From the IMG/VR virus record IMGVR_UViG_3300042431_000197, positions 1 through 33,289 of that record: DNA of 33,289 nucleotides; one strand, written 5' to 3'. The position numbers and the translations under genes were made by a program. The stretch comes from a virus (taxonomy: Duplodnaviria > Caudoviricetes). Position 1 is the stretch's first letter. Each line of letters begins with the position of its first letter. Below the pieces are notes generated by a model, which did no database searches, was not told the DNA's origin, and worked only from the letters and a program-made list of their open reading frames with translations. Of this stretch, positions 1 to 30,175 are shown in pieces.

Positions 1-171
1 TCTTTTCAGCTTTCTGAATATCTTTTACTTTATCAATTGGTATTGGTAATCCGTTATACCATTCAAAAAACTCTTTTAAGAATTTAGTTTCTTGCTTTGT
101 AAGTTCAAAAGGTTTACTGAAAGGAAATAATCTATTTAAAGCTTCTTTTCTTTCGTTACATTTTGCACAAG
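1..171. repeat. Terminal direct repeat, copy 1 (likely circular-assembly overlap)
   Basis: 1-171 is identical to 33119-33289 except T128/C33246. Confidence 0.95.
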
Positions 172-229
172 GTTTAATTCCTACTGCGGTTGTAATATCT
201 GCTATTACATCTCCAAGTCCTTTAGCCAT
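1..229 (-). CDS. 5' part of a 112-aa hypothetical protein with two CxxC motifs that spans the circular junction (continues 33118->33009)
   Basis: ATG at 229 reads MAKGLGDVIADITTAVGIKPCAKCNERKEALNRLFPFSKPF..., in frame with the 33009..33248 ORF across the terminal repeat. Confidence 0.85.
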   Translation of the reverse strand, partial: MAKGLGDVIADITTAVGIKPCAKCNERKEALNRLFPFSKPFELTKQETKFLKEFFEWYNGLPIPIDKVKDIQKAEK

Positions 230-690
230 ATTTTATGTTTTATTTTCTTTAAACCTCTATACAATACCGAGTATTCTATTCCTGTTTTCTTTGATAGGTT
301 TGCAATACTTGTGCCTTTAAAGTGTTTTACTATTTCGTTGTTTTCGTTTGTTATAACTCGACCGCATATAGCATCAACTAATAACTGCTCCCACTTTGTT
401 AAGTTCTTAATTTCGTAATTTATTAACGTGTTTTGCTCATCAATTATATTTGGGAACTCATCAACTAAAATAACTCTATTTTTTGTAAGACTTTTTTTCT
501 TACTATCTAACCAAACAGACTTAATCGTAAAATATAAGTAAGCATCATTTATTTCATCAAATTTCTTGCCACTATCATAAATCTTTAAGTAAGCATCTTG
601 TAAAATATCTTTTGCACTATCGTAATCGCCTGTAAAATTATAAGCAATTTTTAATAGTTGTGTTTGATGTTTAACAAGTTGGTCAAGCAT
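205..690 (-). CDS. Phage sigma-70/ECF-like RNA polymerase sigma factor
   Basis: Region-2-like LLKIAYNFTGDYDSAKDILQDAYLKIY and a C-terminal region-4 HTH SIANLSKKTGIEYSVLYRGLKKIK; 161 aa. Confidence 0.8.
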   Translation of the reverse strand: MLDQLVKHQTQLLKIAYNFTGDYDSAKDILQDAYLKIYDSGKKFDEINDAYLYFTIKSVWLDSKKKSLTKNRVILVDEFPNIIDEQNTLINYEIKNLTKWEQLLVDAICGRVITNENNEIVKHFKGTSIANLSKKTGIEYSVLYRGLKKIKHKIWLKDLEM

Positions 691-888
691 TTATTTTTTA
701 CGTTTTCGTGTTTGTTTTGGCTTTTGAACAATAACAATTTCTTTTTCTGATTCACTTTCAAGTGCAATAACAAAATCTTTATCGATTAATAATTTTGCTC
801 TTTCGTTTGATGTTTCAAACTCTGCTCCAACAAACATATTTTGGTTAAGTTCCTTGTCTGTATATGGTTTTATAACTTTTACTTTCAT
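691..888 (-). CDS. Hypothetical small phage protein
   Basis: 65-aa ORF with an A-rich start context that abuts the sigma gene; basic C-terminal tail. Confidence 0.75.
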   Translation of the reverse strand: MKVKVIKPYTDKELNQNMFVGAEFETSNERAKLLIDKDFVIALESESEKEIVIVQKPKQTRKRKK

Positions 889-909
889 TTTTTAATTATT
901 TGATTTAGA

Positions 910-917
910 CAAAATTA
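910..917 (-). promoter_or_regulatory. Putative Bacteroidota housekeeping -7 promoter element (TAATTTTG)
   Basis: Matches the TAnnTTTG consensus; intergenic, about 20 nt upstream of ATG 888 that leads into the sigma gene. Confidence 0.5.
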
Positions 918-941
918 GTAATTTATTTTTAATAAACAATA

Positions 942-1166
942 TTATTTTGTAAATATTTCATTATAATCAGCATCTTGACCACACCACCAAGTTTTTACAT
1001 TTTCTTTTGTTGTGTCTTCTAACCAACAGGAACGCCAATCTAAAGTCCATACGCTTCTTTTACCTATCATTTTACCATCTATAACTTTCCAAACGATATT
1101 ATTACCATCTATTGAAGAATATGTATTGTTTAAACTTAAAACTGATTTTATTATTGTATCTCTCAT
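942..1166 (-). CDS. Hypothetical protein
   Basis: 74-aa Trp-rich ORF, co-directional, A-rich leader. Confidence 0.65.
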   Translation of the reverse strand: MRDTIIKSVLSLNNTYSSIDGNNIVWKVIDGKMIGKRSVWTLDWRSCWLEDTTKENVKTWWCGQDADYNEIFTK

Positions 1167-1178
1167 TTTGTTATTTTT

Positions 1179-1448
1179 TTAATTACGAAGCATTGTAATA
1201 GGATTTATATTTTGATTCCAAAAATCTTTTTGTAATACTGGTGTTATTTCTTGTACTTTATTTTCAGTTTTTGTATTATACCCTCTTTTATTTCTAATAC
1301 TTTTAACCTGCGCTGGTGTTAAACTTAGATTGTTATCGCTTAAAAATTTGCGTATTGTTGCAAAAGAAATATTTAATTGATTTTTAATTTCTTTAATAGG
1401 CAAAGTTAATCTATTTTCTATTATAAATTCTTCTTGTTGTAGTGTCAT
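1179..1448 (-). CDS. Hypothetical protein with HTH-like N-terminus
   Basis: LPIKEIKNQLNISFATIRKFL resembles a helix-turn-helix. Confidence 0.6.
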   Translation of the reverse strand: MTLQQEEFIIENRLTLPIKEIKNQLNISFATIRKFLSDNNLSLTPAQVKSIRNKRGYNTKTENKVQEITPVLQKDFWNQNINPITMLRN

Positions 1449-1570
1449 ATTACTTTTTATTGTTATATAAACCCCAATTTTTAGGGTTTATCTTGTTGTT
1501 AAAAGTTAAATTATTTTTCTTGTTAGTGTTTTCATAATTTTGTAATACATTTTTTGTAACAATCAATTAG

Positions 1571-1777
1571 TTAGGCACAATTTATACCCAGTTCAATTAA
1601 ATCTTCTACTCTTGCTTTTCGCCAAACCTTTATATCTGGACTTTCATCTCCAACAAAGTCACAAACTGTTTTGTAAACTTCTACTTTTATTTGCCAACCA
1701 AATAAGGTTTTGCGAATACGGTATTTTCCTGTTAATCTTCTCATAATAAAACTGTGCCTAACAAAGTGTATAAGCAA
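1571..1777 (-). CDS. Hypothetical cassette-1 protein (start TTG 1777 inside attC1, or ATG 1744)
   Basis: The ORF fills the cassette exactly; its TAA stop is the TTA of the GTTAGGC core site at 1570-1576. Confidence 0.7.
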   Translation of the reverse strand: MLIHFVRHSFIMRRLTGKYRIRKTLFGWQIKVEVYKTVCDFVGDESPDIKVWRKARVEDLIELGINCA

Positions 1778-1879
1778 TAGCCGTTAGGTGTTTCAAACTA
1801 TTGCAGTTGTTAATATTAAATTTTATACCTCTAATCAAGTTTCGTGTTCGGCTACTGCTCATACACTTAGCCGTTAGCG
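1756..1879 (+). repeat. attC-like site 1
   Basis: GCCTAAC (1756-1762); arms AAGTGTATAAGCAATAGCCG (1764-1783) and CGGCTACTGCTCATACACTT (1849-1868) are 18/20 complementary; GTTAGCG (1873-1879). Confidence 0.8.
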
Positions 1880-1914
1880 ATAATGCTACAAGTAGGTTAA
1901 ATAAGAAAATATCT

Positions 1915-2775
1915 TTAAAATAATTCTGGTTGAGATATTCTAATATTAAGTCTTTTTTCTGCATATTTACATTGTTCTTCTGATATTTCACTTCCAATAT
2001 AATTTCTTTTTTCAATTATACAAGCATTTGCAGTTGTGCCGGTTCCCATAAAGCTATCATAAATCAAATCATTTTCTTTTGTATAAAGTAACAATAGCTT
2101 TCTAACTAATTCAGTTGAGTAGGTTGCCTTATTCAAATCATTGCTTCCATCATTGTTTGACGCTTCAATATAGTTATAAAAAACATCATAAAAATCTTGT
2201 CCCTTATTTGATGTAGTTGTTACCTTCTTGTTTGTGTTAAAAGTTAGGTATTCAGTTTTTCTAACAAACACAAATACAAATTCACAAATTCGTGTTAGTT
2301 TATTTTTACTTGTTGTGTTTGGTAAAGCGGTTGTTTTTTTCCAACTAATACAATCAGCAACAGTAAATTCAGTTCGTTTTATTATTTCAGCAATTAGCAA
2401 CCACATTGTTTCAACACTTTCGTTTCCGTATGAAATATTGTAAAGCACACAGCCATCTTTTTCTAAAATAGTATTATAGGCTTTAAATAATTCAATAGTC
2501 CAATCAATGTATTCATCACTTGATTTTGTGTCTAAATACTTATCGTATCGCTTATCTTGGCTATAAACACGAACACCTTTTACTATTTTGTTGCTCCAAT
2601 ATTCAATTCTACCACCAGTATTATAAGGCGGTGAAGTTATTACTGCATTTACTTTACCAGCTAATCTTTTCATAGTTAACAAGCAATCTTCATTATAAAT
2701 TTTGTTTATAAAATACGCACTATCGCTAACACTCGTTTGGCTCAATGCCTTATTTTCGTTTTTATCGTTTTTCAT
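1915..2775 (-). CDS. DNA amino-methyltransferase, beta-class N4-C/N6-A family (cassette 2)
   Basis: Catalytic motif IV TSPPY precedes SAM-binding motif I DSFMGTGTT..A and GSEIS; the first ~20 aa are encoded by attC2. ATG 2775 (GTG 2778). Confidence 0.92.
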   Translation of the reverse strand: MKNDKNENKALSQTSVSDSAYFINKIYNEDCLLTMKRLAGKVNAVITSPPYNTGGRIEYWSNKIVKGVRVYSQDKRYDKYLDTKSSDEYIDWTIELFKAYNTILEKDGCVLYNISYGNESVETMWLLIAEIIKRTEFTVADCISWKKTTALPNTTSKNKLTRICEFVFVFVRKTEYLTFNTNKKVTTTSNKGQDFYDVFYNYIEASNNDGSNDLNKATYSTELVRKLLLLYTKENDLIYDSFMGTGTTANACIIEKRNYIGSEISEEQCKYAEKRLNIRISQPELF

Positions 2776-2845
2776 CACGTTTATTTTTAATGATTAAATT
2801 TAGTTTTCATAACTCGGCACTAAGCCAAGCGAGGGGACGTTATGG
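2724..2845 (+). repeat. attC-like site 2
   Basis: CGCTAAC (2724-2730); arms CTCGTTTGGCTCAATGCC (2732-2749) and GGCACTAAGCCAAGCGAG (2816-2833) are 15/18 complementary; GTTATGG (2839-2845). Confidence 0.82.
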
Positions 2846-2851
2846 TTAATG

Positions 2852-3835
2852 CTACGTGAAGCATTCACAAGGAAATAAATCTTGTGTAGATTGTTTTAAA
2901 TAATGTTTTGCTGACTTCCAAAATTTATGACTTGATATGTGTTCATTTGCTGGAATACCTATTTCTTTCATTCTTTTAAAAGTCGGTTCAACTTCTTTTA
3001 AAAATCCAAAATTTCCAAATGAATGCCCTATTCTTTCCTCTGATAATTTAGCTCTTTCAAAAGTTTCATTATCTTCACAATATACAACGTACCAATGTTG
3101 TTGACCAGCTTTTAAACATCCTTTACAATTTGCGTGTTTCCAAACTTTATATGTTAAAGGTGGTTCAATACCAATTTCTTTAGTTGAGTTAATAGTTTTT
3201 TCTTTTCCGTCGTATTCTGTAATTTCTAAAAGATTGTGCTTTATAGCTTCTTCAATAACATCTAATGGTAATTTATGTAATTTAGATTTGTTAGCTTTGT
3301 TGTAGGTTTTTAAAAGTTCGTTAATTTTAAAATCATTATATTTTTTTATCAACTCAAAAGACCATAAAGCCAAAGGAAAATCTGTTTCAATTCCATCTTG
3401 AATAAGAATTGATTTTCTTCTTTCAACTCTATTTAATTCATCACTATCAAAACCATAATAACAGCAAACACTTTCTTTTTCTACTGATTTTAAATAATCA
3501 TAAAAAGGTTCTGTTTTTAAGGCATAAGTGCATAATATTTGTCTATTATGTGGGTTTACAAATGTTTTTCTTTCTTCACATACTTCAAATTGATTAGGAA
3601 TGTCATTTTCATTTTCAATTCCTTTTATGTTTGCAAAAGTTATCGGTAAACCTAAATAATCAGCAATTTCTTTTTTAAACCTTTTAATATCCGCATCTTC
3701 ATATCTTGGATTAATATTATGATTTAGTAAAATAACATTTTCTTTACCAAATAATTTAACCACTTCAATAGCAACTAAAGCAGATGAATGCCCTCCAGAG
3801 TAACAAACTATGTGTTTAGTATTTTTCATAAACAA
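2852..3835 (-). CDS. PP-loop (PAPS-reductase-like / adenine nucleotide alpha-hydrolase) protein with Cys cluster (cassette 3)
   Basis: N-terminal HIVCYSGGHSSA PP-loop; CTYALKTEP, YYGFDSDE..R, HANCKGCLKAG and a C-terminal CEC. Confidence 0.75.
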   Translation of the reverse strand: MFMKNTKHIVCYSGGHSSALVAIEVVKLFGKENVILLNHNINPRYEDADIKRFKKEIADYLGLPITFANIKGIENENDIPNQFEVCEERKTFVNPHNRQILCTYALKTEPFYDYLKSVEKESVCCYYGFDSDELNRVERRKSILIQDGIETDFPLALWSFELIKKYNDFKINELLKTYNKANKSKLHKLPLDVIEEAIKHNLLEITEYDGKEKTINSTKEIGIEPPLTYKVWKHANCKGCLKAGQQHWYVVYCEDNETFERAKLSEERIGHSFGNFGFLKEVEPTFKRMKEIGIPANEHISSHKFWKSAKHYLKQSTQDLFPCECFT

Positions 3836-4109
3836 CTTTTGTTTTAGGATTTAAACTTTCTAAATATTCAATAGCCCATTCTAATTTAGGATAAGACAAA
3901 TCGCATTCAGTTGAAAATGTATAAATACCATTTAAACATAATTCCTCATCTTTATAAAATTTCCATCCTTTAAATAATCCAAATATTCCATTATCAAAAT
4001 ATTGAGGATAAAATCTATTATCTTTTTCAATAATTCTGTTTTTGAAATCCGCACTAACCATAACACTCGTTTGGCTCAATGCCTTATTTTCGTTTTTATC
4101 GTTTTTCAT
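3816..4109 (-). CDS. Hypothetical protein (cassette 3), N-terminus encoded by attC3
   Basis: Starts MKNDKNENKALSQTSV, identical to the MTase N-terminus; overlaps the next gene. Confidence 0.75.
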   Translation of the reverse strand: MKNDKNENKALSQTSVMVSADFKNRIIEKDNRFYPQYFDNGIFGLFKGWKFYKDEELCLNGIYTFSTECDLSYPKLEWAIEYLESLNPKTKVVYEKY

Positions 4110-4179
4110 TACTTTTTATTTTAATGATTAAATTTAGTTTTCATAACTCGGCACTAAGCCAAGCGAGGGAACGTTATAT
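4058..4179 (+). repeat. attC-like site 3 (near-identical to site 2)
   Basis: 4061-4177 matches 2727-2843 with 5 differences in 117 bp; CCATAAC ... GTTATAT ends. Confidence 0.82.
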
Positions 4180-4180
4180 A

Positions 4181-4264
4181 AAATAAAACCCACATATCAA
4201 AAGGTCGTCGTCTTTATCAATGTGGGAATTTGTTAAAATTTTAAATGTAGCGACGACTCTACTG
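4181..4264 (-). ncRNA. Two-hairpin kissing-loop leader RNA, copy A
   Basis: Hairpin 1 GTAG-AGTCGTCG-CTAC (4262-4247); hairpin 2 CCCACAT..AAAG-ACGACGAC-CTTT..ATGTGGG (4226-4189), then a U-rich tract. Confidence 0.7.
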
Positions 4265-4267
4265 ATG

Positions 4268-4275
4268 CAAATATA
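4268..4275 (-). promoter_or_regulatory. Bacteroidota -7 promoter element TATATTTG
   Basis: TAnnTTTG consensus; the same TATATTTGCA precedes all three leader RNAs. Confidence 0.7.
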
Positions 4276-4280
4276 TAAAT

Positions 4281-4448
4281 TTATTTTAATTGTACCGCTT
4301 TATAATAATAATTTTTGTTTTTATTTAGTGTTTGGTATTCGTAAAATGTGATTTCTTTAATAAACTCTTTAGAAGTTTCTTTATGTATCGCAATTAGTTT
4401 TAATTTAGTGTTTGGGTCTAATGCGTAGGGTTGTTTATTTTTTACCAT
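4281..4448 (-). CDS. Hypothetical 55-aa protein (not in ORF track)
   Basis: MVKNKQPYALDPNTKLKLIAIHKETSKEF...; start overlaps the end of ninG and the ORF fills the gap. Confidence 0.55.
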   Translation of the reverse strand: MVKNKQPYALDPNTKLKLIAIHKETSKEFIKEITFYEYQTLNKNKNYYYKAVQLK

Positions 4449-5037
4449 ATTCTTTTATTTTAATATCATATTGTAATTTTTTAGCTATTAATTCTTCTTT
4501 AGTATATTTTTTCACTCGATTAATATCACAAATATTGTCTAAATTTGTGACATAATCTATTCCATAACGCTTAATTAAACCTTTTCGGAAATTTAATTCA
4601 TTACCATTCATAAATCTGTTACATTTTCTGCATTGTTTATGGCAATTATTTTCGTTAAATATCAATCCTGAATAAATTTCTGCTTTGTAGAAATGACCAC
4701 CATCAAATAAATCTGCGGTTGTAGTATCGCAACTTATACAAGGTTTATCGCTATCACGCAATCTTATCCACTTTTGAAACGATTTTCTTGCTTCTTGCTT
4801 ATATTCTCCTATTGTTTTAAGTTTTGCTCTTAAATCGCTTTTAAATGCTTTTGCTTTATCTGACTTAACTTTTAAGTTTATTTTATTAAAAACAACTTTT
4901 CCAGCATCTGAGTTAAATAAGAAATCAGATAAGCAGGAACTGCATAAACCAAACGTTCTATATAAAGTCATTTTTCCACAACCTTTAACCATTCGTGCCT
5001 TATTGATTCCTTTGCAGGGTTTTTCTTTTATATCCAT
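4435..5037 (-). CDS. ninG: NinG/Rap-like recombination endonuclease
   Basis: FQKWIRLRD..PCISC, DGGHF, FNENNCHKQCRKCN, and FRKGLIKRYG match the lambda NinG family pattern. Confidence 0.85.
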   Translation of the reverse strand: MDIKEKPCKGINKARMVKGCGKMTLYRTFGLCSSCLSDFLFNSDAGKVVFNKINLKVKSDKAKAFKSDLRAKLKTIGEYKQEARKSFQKWIRLRDSDKPCISCDTTTADLFDGGHFYKAEIYSGLIFNENNCHKQCRKCNRFMNGNELNFRKGLIKRYGIDYVTNLDNICDINRVKKYTKEELIAKKLQYDIKIKEYGKK

Positions 5038-5879
5038 TCTGTATTTATATTATTATTATCTGTTTCGTATGGCAACCAATCTTTGTTTACATCAAAATTA
5101 ATAGGCTCAAAAGGTATATTTCTTGAGTATTCACATTTTGCAGTTGTTATATTATCGTTTTTTTCTATAAATACAACAGTTTCAGCTTTCTTTAATACAC
5201 TACTTCCAACGTGTCCTACTGGTTTTGATGTTCCAAAATTCTTATGCAATATTCCTGTGCAGTGCATATTACCTTTTGCAGTCCATTGTAGCAATTTTTC
5301 AGTTAAACCAGTTGATTGTTCTAAACTATTAAAGTCTGTTACCAAATCTACATATCCATCAATCGACATTAAACCAATATTATTTTTAAACTCGCTTTCG
5401 TAAACTATCCAATCAATAAAATCAAATCGTTCTTTTGGTGTGTATTGTCTTAAGCAAAATGTTTTATAAAATTCATAGTTTCCACCTATCATTTCTAAAA
5501 CTCTTCTTTGAACTCTTTGCGTATGAAAAGATGATTGTTCTGTATCGAACGAAATTACAAATTTATTTTGAGTATTATGCCCTTTTATTGATGGATTTAA
5601 TATGTTTGATTTACCACCAATATAACCAGCTTCAATCATAGATTTAAAAAATGTTTTTCTTGACTTTGATGCTCCTACTATACAACTGAAATCTCCATAA
5701 CTTCCAAATGGTATTGGATACATTGTGTTTTTATATTCACTTTCACGAATTGAAATAGCTATTGGTTGTTGTTTAATTTCTTCGCTTGGGTCAATTAAAG
5801 CTTCTTTAAATATTTTACTAAAATCAATTTCATTTAAAACTATTTCAGTTGTTTCTGGTATTATAATTTTTTCAAACAT
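5028..5879 (-). CDS. RecA-like P-loop ATPase, putative replicative helicase domain
   Basis: Variant Walker A IVGASKSRKT, FDTEQ, Walker B-like MSIDG, ILHKN..GHVGS; located in the replication module. Confidence 0.7.
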   Translation of the reverse strand: MFEKIIIPETTEIVLNEIDFSKIFKEALIDPSEEIKQQPIAISIRESEYKNTMYPIPFGSYGDFSCIVGASKSRKTFFKSMIEAGYIGGKSNILNPSIKGHNTQNKFVISFDTEQSSFHTQRVQRRVLEMIGGNYEFYKTFCLRQYTPKERFDFIDWIVYESEFKNNIGLMSIDGYVDLVTDFNSLEQSTGLTEKLLQWTAKGNMHCTGILHKNFGTSKPVGHVGSSVLKKAETVVFIEKNDNITTAKCEYSRNIPFEPINFDVNKDWLPYETDNNNINTEWI

Positions 5880-6378
5880 TTTTATAAGTATTTAACGCAA
5901 GTGTTATTGTAGCGTTTAAGTTATTGTAAATATTATCTTCACTCCAAAGGTCGCAAACTTCTAAAAACTCATTTGCATCTATTTTATTGCAAATATCGGT
6001 ATTATATTTAAAATTTTCTTTTAAGTCAAATTTTGACATCATACTCCAAGTATCTTTTAAACCTTTGTTTTCAAAATAATTTTTTATCTCTAATACATTT
6101 GCCTCTTTTCTAAACTCGTTGTATAAACCATCTAAAGGCATTTTAAGTATTTTATTTACATTAGATTGTGCAAGGTCAAAATTTCTTACTATTCGCATTT
6201 GAGTAATAAAATTCATAATGTATAATTTTGCAAATAGTTTGTTTTCTTGTACTTCGGTTTTGTTTACGTTGTTTATAAATTCAATTATAGAATTTAAAGC
6301 ATCGGCATCAGTTCCGTTTGGTTTATTTTGTTTTGATATTGTAAAACCTAATCTTTTAATTGCATCTGATATTTTCAT
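5872..6378 (-). CDS. Hypothetical protein (replication module)
   Basis: 168-aa ORF overlapping both neighbours. Confidence 0.75.
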   Translation of the reverse strand: MKISDAIKRLGFTISKQNKPNGTDADALNSIIEFINNVNKTEVQENKLFAKLYIMNFITQMRIVRNFDLAQSNVNKILKMPLDGLYNEFRKEANVLEIKNYFENKGLKDTWSMMSKFDLKENFKYNTDICNKIDANEFLEVCDLWSEDNIYNNLNATITLALNTYKNV

Positions 6379-29648: not shown

Positions 29649-30175
29649 ATCTTTAAACTTTGTTTCATTAATTTTTCTAAATCTAACCCGTAGGCTTCAA
29701 TAACTTCATCTGGTAATCTTTGAAATCCTGCCTCAAATGGTTTACTAAAAAATAAACTTGGCTTTATTCCTTTTTGATATATTGAACGTGTGATTAAAAA
29801 TGCGGTATTCTCATAACTCATAAACTTTCCGCTTTCTCTATCTTTAAATTGAAAACGTCTTGCTTTAACCCACTCTAAAATACCACTTGTTAAACCGCCT
29901 TTTTTACCTGTGCCACTTCCAAACTTAAAAGGACTATTTGGCGCTTTTGCCGAACTACTTTTACCTTTAACTCCTTTGTCTTGAAACTCTCCGTAATCTT
30001 CCATTTCAAAGTAAATACCTATTGAGTTTTTACCTACAAATGAATCACCTTTAATGGAATTATAAAGTTTCTTTTTTACATTTTTATCAGTTCGTGTTAA
30101 GTTGCTTTTACTTTGTTGAACTACATACTTTGTAAATTTAGAAAGTGTTTTATTTAATTCATTATTAGCATCCAT
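29645..30175 (-). CDS. Putative neck/tail-completion protein
   Basis: Basic protein with YGEFQDKG, ILEWVK and SIYQKGIKP..FF motifs; likely start at MDANNEL. Confidence 0.6.
   Translation of the reverse strand: MDANNELNKTLSKFTKYVVQQSKSNLTRTDKNVKKKLYNSIKGDSFVGKNSIGIYFEMEDYGEFQDKGVKGKSSSAKAPNSPFKFGSGTGKKGGLTSGILEWVKARRFQFKDRESGKFMSYENTAFLITRSIYQKGIKPSLFFSKPFEAGFQRLPDEVIEAYGLDLEKLMKQSLKI

Follow-up and report, generated by a model that had tools for sequence, protein, structure and literature searches.

The lake (freshwater) phage IMGVR_UViG_3300042431_000197, whose genome is circularly complete at 33 kb (33,289 nucleotides, hereafter the window), probably carries a recombinase-less array of an integron-like system of Bacteroidota and phages. 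In this system a hairpin precedes a gene and travels with it, the hairpins C and D likely supply the start of their genes, and a tyrosine recombinase of Xer-like type, encoded outside the genome, is the likely agent of cassette movement.

Array layout and insertion site

The array consists of one fixed insertion site (1570) and three cassettes of 303, 966, and 1334 bp, each with a hairpin at one end (B, C, and D, respectively; Table 1). The three cassettes hold four ORFs, all on the minus strand and pointing away from their hairpins, as the initial annotation had described. It had also placed the array start at a non-hairpin core at 1570, and this was borne out, as site A has no hairpin and the array ends with hairpin D.

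The close relative L121 matches the window identically up to the GTTA of site A and continues with a different first cassette. Likewise, the sequencing runs X5, X7, and X11 depart from the window exactly after 1573, and in runs X6, X7, and X11 other sequences are joined to the fixed right flank at 4170-4172; all comparisons with runs refer to contigs only. These comparisons show a fixed site at 1570 that takes varying cassettes and would correspond functionally to attI. Beside it lies the remnant of a 65-aa gene, as read from a joint of 1449 to 1520 with 177 other letters; the gene lies beside the insertion site in relatives. The full-length protein has a sub-threshold match to DUF6290 and nothing better.

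Table 1. Coordinates of the cassette array and adjoining features in the window.
Feature	Positions	Strand	Basis or remark
Remnant of 65-aa gene	1449..1550	-	Only first codons left; full gene beside insertion site in relatives
Site A, attI-like, without hairpin	1550..1576		Putative crossover between G and TT at 1570/1571
Cassette 1 (303 bp), ORF1 and hairpin B	1571..1873		Cassette-end complementarity
ORF1, 57 aa, no family	1571..1744	-	Most likely start ATG 1744, outside hairpin; TAA in core of site A
Hairpin B, attC-like, 118 nt	1759..1876	-	Fold; gives no start codon
Cassette 2 (966 bp), DNA methyltransferase and hairpin C	1874..2839		
N6/N4 DNA methyltransferase, 286 aa, with putative hairpin-encoded 16-aa leader	1915..2775	-	PF01555 E 1e-36
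Shared leader, 16 codons	2728..2775	-	Loop ATG, left arm, GTT of core
Hairpin C, attC-like, 116 nt	2727..2842	-	Fold; 5 positions differ from D
Cassette 3 (1334 bp), two genes and hairpin D	2840..4173		
325-aa protein, phosphoadenosine phosphosulfate reductase-like	2852..3829	-	phrog_424 E 4e-23
97-aa protein, no family, same leader as methylase	3816..4109	-	Alternative ATG 4061
Hairpin D, attC-like, 116 nt	4061..4176	-	Fold; loop ATG 4109; last site of array
Possible promoter and terminator-like leader hairpin	4189..4275	-	Upstream of array

Fold and geometry of the hairpins

In shuffled DNA, the hairpin detector returned 0-5 matches per 128 kb. For hairpins B, C, and D, the fold of the minus strand (z-scores -2.8, -2.8, and -3.7) is better than that of the plus strand (-1.1, -2.0, and -2.9) through G-T pairs, and comparisons among relatives suggest exchange at the far (R') core. 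Hairpins C and D are 96% identical and have their first 49 nt in common. The cognate ends of each cassette are complementary at 9/10 positions beyond the core, compared with 3-6/10 in mismatched pairs. All three hairpins have AAC/GTT cores, to which the 7-nt consensus RYYYAAC/GTTRRRY fits loosely.

The identification of these sites as attC holds in part. The core, the G-T bias, and the end complementarity agree with it, but the geometry does not: B, C, and D have a one-sided bulge of 3-4 nt on the R' arm in place of the two-sided 5-6-nt spacer and the extrahelical bases on the R''-L'' arm of a classical attC. Such a bulge is common: 169/194 viral and 162/196 cellular sites have 2-4 extra nt beside the core, on the arm that is cleaved. 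The sites are accordingly termed attC-like. By the CALIN criterion (at least two clustered attC without an integrase), the genome has three clustered hairpins and no integrase, with a geometry that is not classical. The left arm of hairpin B recurs at 31 viral loci and at least 121 genome loci; a search with hairpin C among GenBank phages gave no match and hence no cultured carrier.

Linkage of hairpins to genes

Among pairs of sites with a common left-hand gene, the one that the hairpin precedes, 16/20 keep the hairpin (by group, 7 of 10 wholly, 2 not, and 1 mixed), compared with 0/11 pairs (9 groups) with a common right-hand neighbour; the loci were picked by hairpin patterns and the pairs are partly non-independent. 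All 11 right-neighbour pairs break at the 4-nt core. These patterns show, at the level of genome comparison, that each hairpin moves together with the gene behind it and that, of the two GTTA cores, the one more distant from the gene start is the exact point at which relatives exchange whole cassettes. Movement of the attC with the gene to its right, named at the outset as the result that would overturn the inverted reading, was not seen in any of these pairs. Homologues of ORF1 occur together with a B-type hairpin beside four different next neighbours in L136, L140, L147, and L153, and cassette 3 in L121 (99.6% identity over 1338 nt) keeps D while the hairpin to its left differs from that of the window, with the break at GTTA. 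The hairpins nevertheless appear to be swapped between genes sometimes, as different hairpins were found in 4/20 of the left-sharing pairs and between L037 and the window.

With polarity set by the G-T bias only, 155 of 191 viral hairpin sites are minus (gene reading away), 14 plus, and 22 uncalled, whereas the 183 sites on genome contigs comprise 122 plus, 31 minus, and 30 uncalled. The B family alone gives the same split (viral, 17/17 callable minus; chromosomal, 67/75 plus). The hairpin families are shared with Bacteroidota chromosomes, in which the genes point towards the hairpin (122/153 callable) as in classical integrons, whereas 155/169 read away from it in phages. This comparison shows opposite gene orientations in chromosomes and phages and supports the inverted orientation proposed for the window.

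Start codons within hairpins

The shared N-terminal peptide of the methylase and the unrelated 97-aa protein was confirmed at the level of sequence, since the ATG at 2775 in the loop of C and the ATG at 4109 in the loop of D open identical stretches of 16 residues. In the C/D family the ATG is invariant and no indel falls between it and the core (22/22 sites), although indels occur just upstream, and the frame stays open for at least 65 aa in 20/22 sites. One C/D leader was found on about 17 different gene bodies. More widely, 40/96 viral long-hairpin families, compared with 8/68 cellular ones, have an ATG whose frame passes through the core without a stop and reads its GTT as Val, and 38/61 of such frames extend for at least 45 codons where about 10 would be expected. 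In 28 long viral sites the in-frame ATG lies solely inside the hairpin. Of the 160 viral sites with a callable gene, among which the B family is overrepresented, 103 have a hairpin that holds no in-frame ATG. Within the leader, 6/7 variable codons change the amino acid in the C/D alignment; the frame is kept, and the peptide sequence itself bears no sign of conservation. Both loop ATGs have G at -3, where A is favoured (PMC6847099).

Two methylase residues, I26 and N28, do not vary across an alignment of 26 proteins, and no ATG, GTG, or TTG lies between the core and these residues; there is accordingly no conventional start outside the hairpin and the methylase needs a start farther upstream. 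In L037 the same core-to-core methylase module lies under a different, unrelated hairpin, with the break at the core. The 97-aa ORF is less clear, as besides its loop ATG it has another ATG in the same frame, located on the core at 4061, which makes the start ambiguous; the homologue in L011/L024 has another hairpin, another leader, and no Met at the core. The 325-aa gene is second in cassette 3, its start (3829) overlapping the end of the 97-aa gene far from any hairpin site, and its relatives in L278-L280 have no such hairpin by eye.

In cassette 1, the ORF1 product matched nothing in Pfam, NCBIfam, or PHROG. A start at TTG 1777 in the hairpin arm, as first proposed, was rejected: homologous cassettes open at the ATG equivalent to 1744, and in B-type sites the TTG of the arm shares the frame of the following ATG no more often than by chance (10/27). 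The start is most likely ATG 1744, outside hairpin B, but the stop does lie in the core, with the TAA inside the 1570 core as had been noted.

Hairpins C and D therefore likely supply the start codon and first 16 aa of their genes, and as judged from these alignments such a start is a trait of particular hairpin families that hairpin B does not share. The initial claim that genes start inside their own attC probably stands for C and D but not for B or the 325-aa gene, and the recombination site as a portable start module is supported for the C/D family and is enriched across phage hairpin families.

Recombinase in related arrays

No recombinase or integrase gene was found in this circularly complete genome, which does encode ERF and NinG. 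In 10 viral contigs, a tyrosine recombinase of 266-268 aa is encoded left of the array, in 5 of them 43-52 nt from the insertion site. The one protein tested, to which the other nine are 45-57% identical where aligned, scored 139.5 against TIGR02249 (cut-off 265) and, compared with 2A3V, has no counterpart to about 48 residues of the VchIntIA insert. Its best matches were NF040815 and PDB 4a8e/5hxy, with scores below the curated cut-offs of all these families. Judged by these matches the neighbouring enzyme of the relatives is Xer-like, not IntI. A related recombinase lies beside a conventional array in L285. The recombinase was also detected in 1/5 array-bearing virus records (as a fragment at a contig end) and 3/5 array-bearing bacterial genomes (E 1e-40), and 1/3 of these bacterial loci has array-type hairpins beside the gene (3.8 kb examined); GenBank phages gave no match at E 1e-40. 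A Xer-like protein of this kind may act on these hairpins.

Proposed mechanism

By analogy with the bottom strand of integrons, the coding strand would fold, and its cleavage would fall at the AAC of the far core. A co-infecting phage or the host may supply the enzyme; alternatively, exchange with relatives may now be all that reshuffles the array. Since the cassette genes face the insertion site, a Pc-like promoter at the attI end could not transcribe them. Transcription would instead begin at the far end and proceed to the insertion site, which would put the newest cassette last in the transcript. A candidate promoter may lie at that far end, where TAnnTTTG (4275-4268), which we take to be a promoter motif, stands ahead of a terminator-like leader hairpin (4189-4226). 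Array ends do not clearly carry the motif more often than inner sites do (8/35 compared with 17/136), a sigma-70 promoter scan gave 23 matches against 18.8 expected with a model that is uninformative for Bacteroidota, and an Rfam search of positions 1-6000 gave no real match.

Shine-Dalgarno sequences are not used in this phylum, and translation may initiate in the A-rich, mostly unpaired loop. The 16-aa leader is likely a tolerated by-product, given that conservation extends to its frame and not to its sequence. A rarer second exchange at the near core might swap hairpins, and hence leaders, between genes. On a more tentative reading, which we hold to be possible though somewhat doubtful, the hairpin is a mobile start module: as the GTT of the core is read as Val in most families, near-core exchange could snap any hairpin in frame onto any gene body. 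This reading draws on the roughly 17 bodies with one leader, the L037 methylase swap, four further pairs, and a variant in run X3. In the X3 contig cassette 3 is missing through a 1334-nt deletion whose joint falls within the first 49 nt common to C and D, and the methylase carries D instead of C, which far-core excision does not predict; the joint could be either a real deletion or an assembly collapse of the C/D repeat.

Alternative explanations

The X3 deletion, the near-identity of C and D, and the presence of ERF and NinG genes in a genome with no recombinase would also fit regulatory repeats shuffled by phage homologous recombination with no site-specific enzyme. We regard this as unlikely, because in all 11 pairs with exchange between unrelated hairpins (39-65% identity) the break lies at the 4-nt core, and because site A, with neither a hairpin nor homology to one, takes varied cassettes exactly after GTTA. 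Complementary cassette ends and the recombinase adjoining the site in relatives also argue against it, so the homologous route probably accounts for some events between near-identical hairpins and not for the system. A marginally less probable reading accepts the inversion of the cassettes but treats the loop ATG as incidental, with translation starting outside the hairpin, at Met 4061 for the 97-aa protein and at a non-standard ATA or ATT for the methylase. The in-frame ATG at 4061, the hairpin-less methylase relatives that start two or three residues ahead of the conserved INKIY stretch, the amino acid changes in the leader, and hairpin B, which functions with no internal start, are in line with it. 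The 22/22 conservation of ATG and frame beside upstream indels, the frame-specific surplus of open ATGs in phage but not cellular families, and the 28 sites whose only in-frame ATG is within the hairpin speak for a start in the loop.

Two further readings keep closer to known integrons. The sites could be classical attC worked by a host IntI, in an ordinary CALIN with some inverted genes, given that the core, bottom-strand G-T bias, and cassette-end complementarity are as in integrons (PMC5027507) and that phage CALINs have been published (PMC9892861). This is very improbable in view of the one-sided 2-4-nt bulge in most viral and cellular sites and the low TIGR02249 score and missing insert of the neighbouring enzyme; furthermore, P12002L_attC1, the one published test of this geometry, albeit a single short site, was the sole site of six that did not recombine with IntI1. 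Least probable of all, and largely refuted, is a canonical orientation on the minus strand, in which the hairpin belongs to the gene that ends at it. Stop codons can indeed fall in the core beside the following hairpin, and some genes have exchanged the hairpin in front of them. However, no pair of the 11 keeps the hairpin with that neighbour, cassette 3 of L121 retains D with its left hairpin changed, and the array starts at a non-hairpin site and ends with a hairpin.

Comparison with known systems

The preferred reading, an inverted integron-like array, has partial counterparts elsewhere. T4-type phages have promoter stem-loop cassettes, repeated leader elements with expression signals before small accessory genes, which are thought to shuffle by homologous recombination; here, in contrast, exchange occurs at a 4-nt core between unrelated hairpins. 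XerC/D recombines the folded site of the CTX phage. The recombinase of the relatives resembles XerC/D and archaeal XerA as a simple Xer-type enzyme, but it falls below curated cut-offs and adjoins a cassette array. XerCD can recombine single-stranded substrates (PMC5027507).

Integrons (PMC5027507, PMC9024848) share the fixed insertion site, tandem cassettes with one hairpin each, the AAC/GTT core, far-core crossover, better folding of the strand richer in G-T pairs, and homogeneous hairpin families on many genes. They differ in that here the genes read away from the hairpin and partly start inside it, the folding strand is the coding strand, a one-sided bulge replaces the spacer and extrahelical bases, the neighbouring recombinase is without the IntI insert, and in phages its gene is co-directional with the cassette genes. 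The phage CALINs (PMC9892861), especially Polaribacter phage P12002L, likewise form a recombinase-less attC-like cluster with methylase genes. In P12002L the detector finds hairpins of the same polarity and geometry, one of them identical to the published attC1, although the genes checked there start outside the hairpins. In the parts of that study consulted, Qi et al. 2023 (PMC9892861) treat the sites as ordinary attC and note just ‘divergent directions’, with no account of inverted genes, in-hairpin starts, an insertion site, or a different recombinase. In class 1 integrons, ORF-11, ORF-17, and ORF-18 of attI1 (PMC8876359) are also a case of a recombination site lending translation signals to cassette genes. 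That signal resides in the fixed attI and acts by coupling on the first cassette only, whereas here it resides in a mobile hairpin, moves with the gene, and is fused in frame.

Significance

The inverted layout is best regarded as a variant of the integron that is apparently undescribed in print, as the literature searched, which included few subscription journals, yielded no description of an inverted hairpin-cassette system. In the general view, an integron requires IntI and has its genes directed towards attC, and integrons are rare among Bacteroidota and phages. The cassette pool described here, which Bacteroidota chromosomes and their phages both use and whose cargo includes methylases and other accessory genes, appears to depend on a simpler recombinase and a different hairpin, in a reversed layout. 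A single stretch of 116 nt would serve as both recombination substrate and translation start, which would explain the recurring annotation puzzle of unrelated phage proteins with an identical N-terminal peptide. As a test case the window is compact: its insertion site is defined, and the variants that occur naturally differ by whole cassettes. If the hairpin is indeed a mobile start module, phages would be able to build new cassettes and alter the N-terminus and translation level of their genes with the enzyme that moves cassettes, and the question of how cassettes are assembled would become testable in this system.

Layout of the array and genome context

The window carries three cassettes with one hairpin each and a core without a hairpin, site A. 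Cognate cassette ends pair at 9 of 10 positions and other combinations of ends at 3–6 of 10, and this complementarity gives cassette sizes of 303, 966, and 1334 bp. Five of the 116 positions distinguish hairpin C from hairpin D. As the initial annotation had noted, the methylase and the 97-aa protein share the 16 residues read from the loop ATGs at 2775 (C) and 4109 (D), the last codon being the core GTT.

Recombination sites of the cassette array
Feature	Position	Cassette	Fold
Site A, core without hairpin	1570		
Hairpin B	1759–1876	1	better on minus strand
Hairpin C	2727–2842	2	better on minus strand
Hairpin D	4061–4176	3	better on minus strand

A leader at 4189–4275 (minus strand) contains a promoter-like motif and a terminator-like hairpin; an upstream stretch is complementary to the hairpin loop, which suggests alternative folds. 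The methylases of loci L040 and L041 are seemingly preceded by a similar layout.

The window is an entire virus record (33,289 bp), and a 171-nt overlap between its two ends (99.4% identity) shows it to be circularly complete. Among its products are terminase, lysozyme, holin, ERF, NinG, and NinB-like proteins, and the minus strand carries the long ORFs. The eight sequencing runs compared with it are lake-water metagenomes. The phage host is probably a member of the Bacteroidota, since, among the matches listed, genomes carrying the same hairpin arms are mostly of that phylum.

Ownership of the hairpins and the insertion site

Hairpin-pattern searches yielded 18, 16, and 31 viral loci as well as 4 and at least 121 genome-contig loci, and searches with cassette proteins yielded 2, 4, the best 80 of 518, and 5. 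A wobble-aware arm score served to detect hairpins, and G-T bias alone set the orientation of each locus; the set of 4 genome-contig pattern loci and that of 5 cassette-protein loci were read separately and are omitted from pooled counts. Among the 188 distinct viral sites having both flanks, pairs with a common left flank and different right flanks had the same hairpin in 16 of 20 cases (10 groups: 7 wholly, 2 not, 1 mixed), versus 0 of 11 (9 groups) when the right flank was common, with every break at the core. Cellular sites gave the same pattern among the matches listed (6/8 and 0/5). The hairpin therefore moves with the left-hand gene and not with the right-hand one, as the inverted arrangement proposed earlier had implied. 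Locus L121 carries cassette 3 with a D-type hairpin at 99.6% identity to the window, while the hairpin to its left differs; its site A is the same as that of the window through GTTA and is followed by another first cassette. Contigs from other lakes diverge from the window exactly after 1573 (runs X5, X7, and X11) or join it at 4170–4172 (X6, X7, and X11). Based on the flank-pair linkage, L121, and these breakpoints, comparison shows that site A is a fixed insertion site and that a hairpin belongs to the gene downstream of it.

Hairpins also switch genes, though less often, as three cases indicate. Locus L037 has the same methylase module from core to core but an unrelated hairpin and leader, L011 has a homolog of the 97-aa protein with a different leader, and a contig from run X3 skips exactly 1334 nt, with hairpin D staying on the methylase. 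The retention of D places the X3 joint within the first 49 nt common to C and D, and the joint could be a homologous deletion, an exchange at the near core (the hairpin end beside the gene start), or an assembly collapse. Breaks between unrelated hairpins fall at or adjoining the near core and thus hint at an exchange on the opposite strand; for look-alike hairpins homologous recombination would suffice.

At L025–L028, ORF1 of cassette 1 has the same 3′ end with a different leader and core, and the cassette ends are not complementary there; this cassette is apparently a hybrid. Other phages (L029–L035) carry methylases 77–96% identical to that at 1915–2775; these have no hairpin and a short start of the normal kind, so this methylase is found in ordinary as well as in cassette form.

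Reversed gene orientation

With polarity set by G-T bias and strand scored for the gene adjoining the near core, viral sites had 155 genes on the minus and 14 on the plus strand (22 uncalled), whereas genome-contig sites, among the matches listed, had 122 on the plus and 31 on the minus strand (30 uncalled). This agrees with the earlier description of the cassettes as inverted. Three contigs (L177, L193, and L203), suspected to be phage DNA, account for 21 of the 31 minus-strand sites, and L177 has a phage-type hairpin. For the B arm alone, callable sites were minus in 17/17 viral cases versus plus in 67/75 genome-contig cases among the matches listed. The C/D left arm is also present in a conventional array (L022). 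It is the genes, rather than the sites, that are reversed.

Probable translation start within the hairpin

The proposal that cassette genes start inside their own attC held in part: an internal start is well supported for the methylase and likely for the 97-aa gene, and it fails for cassette 1. Across 22 distinct sites resembling C and D, the ATG is invariant and the interval from ATG to core is free of indels, every gap in the alignment falling upstream of it; the sites are related, and the last 23 nt of this interval are the search pattern, so that only the loop part is a fair test. An open frame of at least 65 aa follows in 20 of the 22, with approximately 17 different bodies (counted by eye). 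Residues I26 and N28 of the methylase do not vary among 26 aligned proteins, and ATG, GTG, and TTG are all absent from the core to these residues, so the start must lie in the hairpin or be non-standard. For the 97-aa gene, the ATG at 4061 is an alternative possible start.

TTG 1777, suggested earlier as the start of cassette 1, was rejected. An ATG just outside hairpin B is the start in four homologous cassettes and is kept below different upstream sequence at four further loci, and of 27 B-type sites only 10 have the TTG of the arm in frame.

Among long-hairpin families (96 viral; 68 cellular, among the matches listed), an ATG that reads across the core without a stop in the Val frame occurred in 40 viral versus 8 cellular families, and in the other two frames in 14 and 17 viral and 11 and 3 cellular families. 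The reading frame runs on for at least 45 codons in 38 of the 61 viral families that have such an ATG, versus about 10 expected. In a sample enriched for the B family, 127 long viral sites had a callable gene, and the in-frame ATG lay only inside the hairpin at 28 of these, both inside and outside at 28, and only outside at 71; at 32 of 33 short viral sites it lay only outside. The design is therefore not universal.

Of seven variable leader codons in the C/D alignment (by eye), six are non-synonymous, and the leader peptide thus looks unconstrained. Folding predictions leave most of the RNA near the loop ATGs unpaired (0.70 and 0.67), which fits the initiation without Shine-Dalgarno sequences described for Bacteroidota in the available part of PMC6847099, despite G at position −3 instead of the favoured A.

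Recombinase and hairpin type

Ten viral contigs have a minus-strand gene for a tyrosine recombinase of 266–268 aa to the left of the array (one match is partial); in five of them it lies within 43–52 nt of the insertion site. One recombinase scored 139.5 against the integron integrase model cut-off of 265; it is closest to archaeal XerA, although it falls below the XerA cut-off as well. The same protein is about 48 residues short at the position of the VchIntIA insert, by which IntI is defined in the sections available of PMC9024848 and PMC8138268. A relative is found directly upstream of a conventional array (L285). From position only, we infer that the recombinase acts on these hairpins; enzyme, strand, and expression are putative assignments. 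Searches of the window with Pfam (41 ORFs), tblastn, and a six-frame profile (best E 0.29) detected no tyrosine recombinase.

The arm of the far core, at the other hairpin end, carries a 2–4-nt bulge in 169/194 viral and 162/196 cellular sites (the latter among the matches listed). Window-type hairpins with this one-sided bulge differ from attC, which has a two-sided spacer and extrahelical bases on the opposite arm (PMC5027507, in part).

Both in L235 and L285 and in L128, L149, and L152, the recombinase gene runs in the same direction as the cassette genes. In the two chromosomal loci (L235 and L285) the insertion site comes after the 3′ end of the recombinase gene, but in phages it comes before the 5′ end. 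A second phage integrase (415 aa) follows the cassette recombinase at L115:6223–7470, and a serine recombinase-like gene flanks the L011 array on the right. A 60–70-aa gene on the insertion-site side (window 1449–1550; L121, L002/L110, L037, L004/L112, and L123) occupies the place of the recombinase gene in other phages. Its product has a ribbon-helix-helix look by eye, with a sub-threshold sole match to DUF6290, and the window copy is broken, 177 nt being replaced by 70 nt.

Relation to known systems

Phage CALINs have been described, including that of Polaribacter phage P12002L (PMC9892861). Our detector found hairpins in P12002L that match those of the window in polarity and geometry, and the attC1 oligo, as given in the accessible text, corresponds by eye to the minus strand of site 30008–30056. 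According to that text, six sites were assayed, and IntI1 recombined all but attC1; inverted genes, internal starts, and another recombinase go undescribed in it. By eye, the last bases of the P12002L_attC2 oligo, as published there, seem different from 37194–37265 of L282 (NC_028924), and the oligo does not look like a hairpin of the window type. A known case of translation signals within an att site is attI1 (PMC8876359, as far as available). The literature search found no description of this cassette system. The array is real and integron-like but non-classical, with its genes reversed.
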